From a virus (Duplodnaviria; Heunggongvirae; Uroviricota; Caudoviricetes), in the IMG/VR virus record IMGVR_UViG_2778261162_000007: a stretch of 47,425 nucleotides of DNA. One strand, given 5' to 3'. The translations under genes and the position numbers were made by a program. Shown in pieces: positions 44,210-44,940 of the stretch. How positions within the stretch are numbered: position 1 is the stretch's first letter; each line of letters opens with the position of its first letter. The notes beneath the pieces were generated by a model that was not told where the DNA came from, did not search any database, and worked only from the letters and a program-made list of their open reading frames with translations.

Positions 44210-44940
44210 ATGTCTGTAGTGATATCAGGTGCGCTGATTGATGGCGCAGGCATCCCCATGTACGGATGCCACATAACTCTGAAATCCCGGGTAAACACCT
44301 CAGAGGTGTGATGCGCACAGTTGCCGACGTGGTGACAGGAAACTGTGGTGCAGGCGCAGCAGAGCGCGAAACAGCACAGGGACGAGGCGCAATGGATAGT
44401 TGATGATCTGAAGGGAAGCAATGCTTCCACGACAAAAAAGGTCTGGCGCAACTCTGTAGTGATACAGACAACGACAGCGAAGTACTGGCAGCCACGCCAA
44501 AGGCTGTCAAAACCGTCATGGACGAGACGAAAACAAAAGCGCCACTGGACAGCCCTGCGTTCACCGTCACGCCAGAACTTATCGCCGTGGGAAAGGATGC
44601 CAGAAAGCGGGAAATCGAGGTGTGGCGCACAGAACAGGAAGCGCAGCCGTTCACATTCGAATGGAACGGACACACCTGGAATGGCGGCCCCGACTCGCTG
44701 GCCCGCCTTTACCCGGTGGTAATGGCTGCAGGGGCTAACTCAGGGCAGTGGGACGTTATGACATGGAGTGATGCTGATAATCAGCAGGTGAAACTGTCGA
44801 TGACGGAACTGGAGGAGCTGGCTGCAGCTATGGCGCAGGTTGATCGCAATAATGAGATTTATCGTCATCAGCGTGAAATGAAAGAGGAACTGAGCAATCT
44901 CCTGGATTTGAAGCAGGTTAGGGAGTTCAGTCCAGAATAA
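44210..44940 (+). pseudogene. Remnant of a lambda Stf-type side tail fibre gene, split over three reading frames
   Basis: Frame 1: MSVVISGALIDGAGIPMYGCHITLKSRVNTSEV then stop (resembles the Stf N-terminus MAVKISGVLKDGTGKPVQNC...); frame 3: ...NDSEVLAATPKAVKTVMDETKTKAPLDSPAFT (conserved Stf motif LAATPKAVK.VMDET) continuing to 44940. Confidence 0.45.

Follow-up and report, generated by a model that had tools for sequence, protein, structure and literature searches.

Remnants of a lambda Stf-type side tail fibre gene and its DUF4376 chaperone gene, very probably a dead second cassette, in a Rac-family prophage of Escherichia coli

Introduction

Phage lambda PaPa is said to have lost its side tail fibre Stf through a frameshift, as Hendrix and Duda reportedly described in 1992, and to stay viable without side fibres. 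Its stf (orf-401/orf-314) carries a single 1-nt lesion and the whole gene is kept. The gene, which encodes a dispensable accessory side fibre, has been put out of action by a small deletion, and the other tail genes are intact. This is the closest textbook parallel to the locus described here, which resembles it in the latter respects but has a six-entry lesion map and has lost the receptor-binding part. Lambda has a siphovirus tail, whereas the genes of the present phage (sheath phrog_205, baseplate J) predict a contractile tail and baseplate. The partner chaperone differs as well, being of the Caudo_TAP type for lambda Stf, as in the Stf and Tfa of Ur-lambda, and of the DUF4376 type for the relic.

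DUF4376 proteins have an established role beside other fibres. Gp27 of Alteromonas phage V22, encoded 3' of the fibre gene, is an experimentally required fibre chaperone (PMC7289586), and the same holds for gp9 of phage A5 (PMC10579305) and for the DUF4376 partner of the Campylobacter CJIE1 H-fibre (PMC7882524). These proteins share with the copy described below a C-terminal DUF4376 domain (PF14301) and a position directly 3' of a fibre gene; unlike them, that copy lacks its own start and its first ~60 codons and is fused to an Stf fragment.

The nearest relatives in gene order are phiP27 (L54-L57), Rac-SA53 (tail1-tail4), pPE4 (gp67-gp70) and a prophage locus of E. coli SC418, in which the intact order is baseplate J, a hypothetical gene, fibre 1, Tfa, Stf and a DUF4376 chaperone. 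All cassette genes lie on one strand in these four, an invertase is absent, and the Stf and DUF4376 proteins measure 490-1061 aa and 187-197 aa, respectively. Rac-SA53 appeared in a literature search in one passing mention alone. The Rac prophage of E. coli K-12 shares integration site and prophage family with the present element and also has an Stf-type fibre before uspF, its right end reading stfR-tfaR-pinR-ynaE-ttcC'-uspF. K-12 Rac keeps full-length stfR, tfaR and pinR, whereas the present element lacks pinR and has a YadA-like gene as its cargo.

Here we show the homologies and lesion map of a damaged locus at 44210-44940 of the virus record IMGVR_UViG_2778261162_000007, the intact ancestral layout in its relatives, and the absence of an invertase. 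The whole stretch of 47,425 nt that was analysed is referred to as the window. The locus is, with high probability, a dead second fibre and chaperone cassette of a Rac-type prophage, wrecked by deletions both small and large. As a prophage pseudogene it is ordinary and no new system, and RefSeq already contains parts of it as fragments.

Methods

The intact genes of phiP27, Rac-SA53, pPE4 and E. coli SC418 served as references for piecewise comparison by blastn and tblastn. Lesions were mapped relative to E. coli SC418 and Rac-SA53, and the junctions were compared in three intact relatives. The spread of the allele was followed with a junction-spanning query against 5426 complete E. coli genomes and with a fusion-junction pattern scan of metagenomes.

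The prophage and its intact primary fibre

The window is an E. coli Rac-family prophage integrated at ttcA, with intR first and then xisR, ralR, recT/recE, kilR, racR and ydaS/T. From position 5166 to its end it shares 99.5% identity (about 99.5-99.9%) with E. coli A17. The late region encodes a tail sheath (31070-32407) and baseplate J among contractile tail and baseplate genes like those of phiP27, Rac-SA53 and pPE4, and in A17 the structural genes, sheath and baseplate J included, carry no PGAP flag. The primary fibre, fibre 1, matches the tail fibre families phrog_6859 (E about 1e-119) and phrog_454 (E about 1e-104), and PGAP calls it intact in A17. Past the window end, the A17 DNA continues with the attR side, then uspF and ompN; by homology, attR is placed ~86 bp beyond the end, and the 26-mer attB of Rac-SA53 has no match inside the window. 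A promoter and terminator scan of 43600-47425 gave counts no higher than shuffled sequence and is therefore uninformative. The features of the region are collected in Table 1.

Table 1. Coordinates of features in the window and the evidence for each
Feature	Position	Strand	Evidence
intR	1-1236		
Primary tail fibre gene (fibre 1), intact, 517 aa, single ORF	42085-43638	+	PHROG
Caudo_TAP tail fibre assembly gene for fibre 1, intact, 181 aa	43641-44186	+	PF02413, E 6e-22; phrog_136, E 1e-57
Stf piece 1a, start codon and codons 1-33, then TGA	44210-44311	+	97% DNA identity to SC418 stf nt 1-140, one gap
Stf piece 1b, codons 34-47 (VMRTVADVVTGNCG), shifted by -1	44308-44348	+	14/14 aa identical to Rac-SA53 tail3 aa 34-47
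20-nt island, stf nt 332-351	44349-44368	+	19/20 identical (L006 4901-4920)
Stf piece 3, stf nt about 655-860 (aa about 219-287), with PF03406 repeat LAATPKAVKTVMDET	44369-44574	+	92-93% DNA identity to SC418, Rac-SA53 and pPE4, one gap
Chimeric ORF, Stf repeat tail and truncated chaperone, 140 aa from ATG 44518	44518-44940	+	ORF list
Fusion junction, 16-17 nt imperfect homology TTCACCG(G/T)CACG(Y)C	44558-44574	+	Overlapping blastn segments; parents compared
DUF4376 tail-fibre chaperone gene, 3' two thirds (codons about 61-188)	44575-44940	+	PF14301, E 3.5e-17
Lambda Tfa/TfaR-type (Caudo_TAP) chaperone relic, aa about 45-104	44956-45122	+	tblastn
YadA-like trimeric autotransporter cargo gene, between relics and attR	45695-47179	+	PF05658, PF03895

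Fragments of the side tail fibre gene

Positions 44210-44574 hold four remnants of a side tail fibre gene of the lambda Stf type, each with 91-97% DNA identity to intact genes. Two blastn segments account for most of them: window 44100-44348 corresponds to the end of the first chaperone gene, a 23-nt spacer and stf nt 1-140 (91-97%, one 1-nt gap), and window 44358-44574 to stf nt about 644-860 (92-93%, one 1-nt gap). The gene thus sat at the same site, 23 nt 3' of the fibre 1 chaperone gene, and in the same start context as in the cassettes phiP27 L56/L57, Rac-SA53 tail3/tail4, pPE4 gp69/gp70 and SC418, in which Stf is a single ORF where here there are fragments; the native ribosome-binding context GAGAAAAACTATG is retained before ATG 44210.

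The preliminary description of this DNA, made from the letters alone, had proposed a decayed lambda Stf-type gene directly after an intact fibre and assembly gene pair, with a start that stops after 33 codons and the LAATPKAVK.VMDET motif in another frame, and both DNA and profile matches, far above chance, bear this out. The ORF from ATG 44210 runs for 33 codons to a TGA at 44309-44311, and 30/33 residues are identical to the start of Rac-SA53 tail3. When the frameshift is repaired, so that these codons are joined to the next 14, the N-terminus shares 20/39 residues with that of lambda Stf/orf-401 (E 4e-10, pairwise BLASTP); tblastn with lambda Stf missed the 33-codon N-terminus because the match is short, and it was pairwise BLASTP that reported it. 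Against PF08400, 'Prophage tail fibre N-terminal', these 47 aa score E 4e-17, a match that needs the repair and is limited to positions 1-47 of 134, the remaining domain being deleted. The motif LAATPKAVKTVMDETKTKAPLDSPAFT is encoded at about 44485-44565, in a frame other than that of the stub, and after repair the middle piece scores E 8.5e-15 against PF03406, 'Phage tail fibre repeat'. The proposed tblastn search also recovered it: the repeat region shares 66.7% identity with lambda orf-401 aa 360-395 (E 9e-11), and the repeat is the only part shared with K-12 StfR (63% over 30 aa). The relic carries the conserved repeat of lambda-Stf-type genes, LAATPKAVK..MDET..APLxSPAFTG.

Three details of the description needed correction. 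The fragments do not occupy three frames but alternate between two, in the order 2, 1, 2, 1 (position mod 3): in the translation of 44188-44945, VMRTVADVVTGNCG follows the stub one frame on, VVQAQQSAKQHRDEAQWIVDDLKGSNASTT returns to the first frame and KGLAQLCSDTDNDSEVLAATPKAVKTVMDETKTKAPLDSPAFT is again in the second, which from there stays open to 44940. Neither is the whole of the ~730 bp derived from Stf, as had been thought. The attribution holds for 44210-44574, but 44575-44940 belongs to a DUF4376 chaperone gene, and the wreckage runs past 44940 into a further relic at 44956-45122.

Set against intact stf, the locus has a lesion map of six entries, comprising two 1-nt deletions, the 20-nt island and three large deletions. 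The loss of one nucleotide at about 44307/8 changes GGTGGTG to GGTGTG and thereby brings the TGA that follows codon 33 into frame. The second 1-nt deletion, at 44436/7, turns ACAGAAAAAGG into ACAAAAAAGG; both adjoin short homopolymer or repeat runs. On the left of the island, at 44348/9, 191 bp have been deleted between AGGAAA(C/T)(T/G)GTGG repeats, and on its right 303 bp between AGCAG(A/G)G(C/T)GCG repeats, so that each of these two deletions lies between imperfect direct repeats of 11-12 nt. An uninterrupted ORF with a distal receptor-binding region is absent, everything after codon ~287 being gone. With two frameshifts, the 191- and 303-bp deletions and this terminal loss, the locus is a pseudogene relic of the lambda-Stf family and no functional member of it. 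Because the net frame of the pieces is broken, reading from the native start ends with the 33-codon stub. RefSeq/PGAP lists that stub (44210-44311, WP_369698927.1) as an ordinary protein in most carrier genomes.

Fusion to a truncated chaperone gene

Through the third large deletion, codon ~287 of stf is followed in frame by codon ~61 of the DUF4376 gene. The sequence at the junction occurs in both parents, where it encodes ..AFTGTP.. (stf) and ..FTVT.. (DUF4376 gene). Measured against SC418 the deletion spans 1.3 kb and against Rac-SA53 2.5 kb, and it takes out the whole distal receptor-binding part of Stf together with the first ~60 chaperone codons. Of stf only about 365 nt are retained, and of the chaperone gene about 366 nt.

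The chaperone assignment rests on several matches. The PF14301 match covers profile positions 3-96 of 106, phrog_1141 is covered from 63 to 188 of 194, and the translated piece is 74% identical in amino acids to Rac-SA53 tail4 aa 61-184. With blastn, window 44558-44968 aligns to the inner and 3' part of the gene after stf in intact relatives at 73-80% identity; the DNA identity of the piece is 78-97% overall, reaching 97% with the intact DUF4376 gene of E. coli A2. The comparison with intact relatives suggested in the preliminary description was thus productive, since the pieces map onto the intact stf and DUF4376 genes of phiP27, Rac-SA53, pPE4 and SC418. A functional chaperone gene of this type would be full length, have its own start and follow an intact fibre gene; this copy is truncated and its cognate fibre is destroyed. 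As DUF4376 proteins encoded after fibre genes are required chaperones, the collapsed cassette is a fibre gene together with the gene for its chaperone.

The fusion leaves a chimeric ORF, for which PGAP places the start at CTG 44443, a codon confirmed in the sequence, giving the 165-aa WP_024184523.1. The interval 44443-44940 is listed under this accession as an ordinary protein in most carriers and appears as pseudogene fragments in NWU_3, as does the stub DNA. WP_369698927.1 (33 aa) and WP_024184523.1 (CTG-start, 165 aa) are probable annotation artefacts derived from pseudogene fragments.

Spread and decay of the collapsed allele

The allele with every lesion is present in 15/5426 complete E. 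coli genomes, ten at >=99.7% identity and five at 98.3-98.6%, and on 4 metagenome contigs. The 15 carriers are independent genomes from several continents and hosts. Where other genomes match this part of stf, they run unbroken through the sites of the 191- and 303-bp deletions. Neither the 5426 complete E. coli genomes nor the metagenome junction scan yielded an intermediate allele, be it one that has the fusion and lacks the upstream lesions or the reverse, and the order of the lesions is for this reason not reconstructable. The collapsed allele arose once and later spread and recombined.

Two lineages carry further changes. The RM11911 lineage shares every lesion and has ACG in place of ATG 44518; from about 44670 it has another DUF4376 allele, a recombinant 3' end that remains in frame, and other downstream cargo. 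In the NWU lineage a further 1-nt deletion, at 44539, shifts the frame at codon 8 of the chimeric ORF, and PGAP labels all its relic pieces pseudogenes. The loss of the ATG in the one and the frameshift in the other fit neutral decay. In the close lineage, the 754 bp of the relic have 6 substitutions and 1 indel, versus 2 substitutions, both synonymous, in 1087 bp of fibre 1/Tfa (Fisher p = 0.037). This pattern is suggestive of relaxed constraint, on small counts (6 + 1 indel).

The most durable of the alternatives to a dead cassette is that the chimeric ORF has been domesticated as a functional gene, acting as a truncated chaperone on fibre 1 or as a decoy that disturbs how superinfecting phages assemble their fibres. 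The two parts are joined in frame, and the ORF contains a complete DUF4376 domain and is open in 12/15 carrier genomes, so that residual activity is conceivable; the exchange of the 3' part for another in-frame allele in the RM11911 lineage points the same way. However, no Shine-Dalgarno sequence was found before ATG 44518, that ATG is itself lost in one lineage and the frame in another, the N-terminal ~60 residues are missing, and substitutions in the ORF within the close lineage are 3 non-synonymous against 3 synonymous, with one frameshifting indel. A PADLOC scan of the ORF likewise gave zero hits. Taken together, domestication would be very unlikely. Its more specific form is if anything a most improbable one. 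In it the chimera, carried on the late transcript, would be expressed and retained in the role of a truncated chaperone or a decoy that might, for instance, interfere with the side-fibre assembly of superinfecting lambdoid phages or modulate fibre 1. If true, this could account for the persistence of one collapsed allele in two prophage lineages whose cargo differs.

A third relic and the shared right-hand end

Beyond the chimeric ORF, the Tfa-type sequence listed in Table 1 is a third, older relic. It matches lambda Tfa (aa 45-103) by tblastn at E 6e-11 and K-12 TfaR at E 9e-10 in a sub-region search and 3e-8 in a search of the whole window. About 96 nt of it recur at about 82% identity in the tfaQ/tfaR of 1773 genomes. 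An open frame over the whole Tfa/TfaR protein is missing, the relic having two in-frame stops, one frameshift and internal gaps, and PGAP labels it a pseudogene, 'frameshifted; incomplete'.

A related right-hand end is found in E. coli A2, where 4211-9472 of the locus (L007) is about 97% identical to window 44558-47425. The module common to the two consists of the DUF4376 chaperone gene, the Tfa relic, the YadA-like gene, attR and uspF. Because A2 has both the Tfa relic and the YadA-like cargo gene behind an intact DUF4376 gene, these two elements travel as a unit. The A2 prophage is lambdoid, of the gpJ type and siphovirus-like, and the window prophage has a contractile tail; the shared module indicates that the Rac-site right end has been exchanged between phages of unrelated tail types. 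The mosaic ancestry that the preliminary description had suggested is thereby upheld. The Stf gene of A2 is also a pseudogene, with its C-terminus missing.

Was the lost cassette invertible?

The preliminary description had further raised the possibility of a collapsed alternative-fibre cassette, while noting that no invertase gene is present in the window, and had pointed to DNA beyond the window for a Pin/Gin-type invertase and its crossover sites. This lead was reasonable, since pinR lies directly after stfR-tfaR in K-12 Rac at the same chromosomal site. The relics would then be leftovers of Sv/U cassettes flipped by Gin, Cin or Pin, as in the host-range switches of Mu (G segment), P1 (C segment) and e14 (P segment), and the Tfa-type fragment after the Stf and DUF4376 relics could be accommodated in such a scheme. 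Yet the absence of an invertase from the window is confirmed: across the whole window, the best tblastn match to K-12 PinR has an E of 0.35 and lies at a site unrelated to the cassette, and K-12 YnaE gives no match. All relics lie on the + strand, and oppositely oriented alternative genes are absent. An inverted-repeat scan returned only repeats of 14-20 nt, 80-93% matched and at positions unrelated to the relics, with no plausible crossover sites among them. In A17, no invertase or recombinase is annotated beyond the window up to uspF, the YadA-like gene, attR, uspF and ompN being found there instead. The four intact relatives, finally, have the cassettes in tandem and lack an invertase. An invertible switch is accordingly extremely unlikely, and the destroyed genes appear, from the layout of these relatives, to have been a tandem second host-recognition cassette and never one of the invertible type.

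Sequencing or assembly frameshift errors in a truly intact gene had been named as a finding that would overturn the description, and two single-base lesions beside short homopolymer or repeat runs might suggest them. Such errors have next to no probability. Identical lesions (two 1-nt and three large deletions) recur in independent assemblies, namely 15 complete genomes and 4 contigs from metagenomes, which refutes this reading, and the gene pair physically lacks about 1.8 kb or more.

A route to the present locus and its consequences

For the dead tandem cassette, the following course can be proposed. Phages of this group have two tandem host-recognition cassettes on one strand, the first consisting of fibre 1 and its Caudo_TAP protein and the second of a lambda-Stf-type fibre and a DUF4376 chaperone. 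The second was here destroyed by the two 1-nt deletions, the 191- and 303-bp deletions and a fusion deletion of at least 1.3 kb. As each large deletion is flanked by short imperfect repeats, slippage or short-homology recombination may have produced them, and the RecE/RecT of the prophage are candidate helpers, with the reservation that recE has an internal stop in A17. The outcome would be a 33-codon stub that is perhaps still translated from its native start, middle pieces that are untranslatable, and a 140-codon chimeric ORF that has no ribosome-binding site and is presumably inert.

With its second receptor-binding fibre lost, the phage would rely on fibre 1 alone; this Rac/phiP27-type lineage has lost an accessory receptor-binding fibre and its host range is presumably narrower or altered. 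The locus provides a clean case of a gene pair that collapsed across short, imperfectly repeated sequences at the right end of Rac-site prophages, a region prone to recombination. Apart from this, its value is mainly one of housekeeping, in that two RefSeq 'proteins' are flagged as probable artefacts.

Other features of the prophage

The recT/recE region (1911-5165) is the sole part of the window that diverges from A17, with 95% identity or no match as against 99.5% elsewhere; there the window has two overlapping minus-strand ORFs at 1985-2875 and 2811-5462. Directly 3' of the terminase large subunit gene, where a portal gene would be expected, is an ORF (23561-25000) whose A17 homologue is named 'anti-CBASS protein Acb1 family protein' by PGAP.

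An ORF of 391 aa (39036-40211) with the N-terminal domains of type I restriction enzyme HsdR (PF04313, PF13588; phrog_4225 'endonuclease') is inserted in the baseplate module directly 5' of baseplate J; a PADLOC scan of it gave zero hits. Rac-SA53 and E. coli SC418 have unrelated minus-strand genes at this spot, which therefore looks like a hotspot for morons or defence genes.

The YadA-like gene encodes a trimeric autotransporter adhesin as cargo, with PF05658 head repeats and a PF03895 anchor, and is preceded on its 5' side by an AT-rich spacer (45200-45690, about 25% GC). It contains six tandem repeats of 78 bp (26 aa) at 46322-46945, one more than in A17 and two more than in A2. In other prophages of the site the cargo at this position is different (an HTH protein, 'zyg1'). 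Near the right attachment site, at 47359-47404, GGCAAAAATGGGGCAA occurs in two exact copies 30 nt apart, and this region is conserved in Rac-SA53 and K-12.
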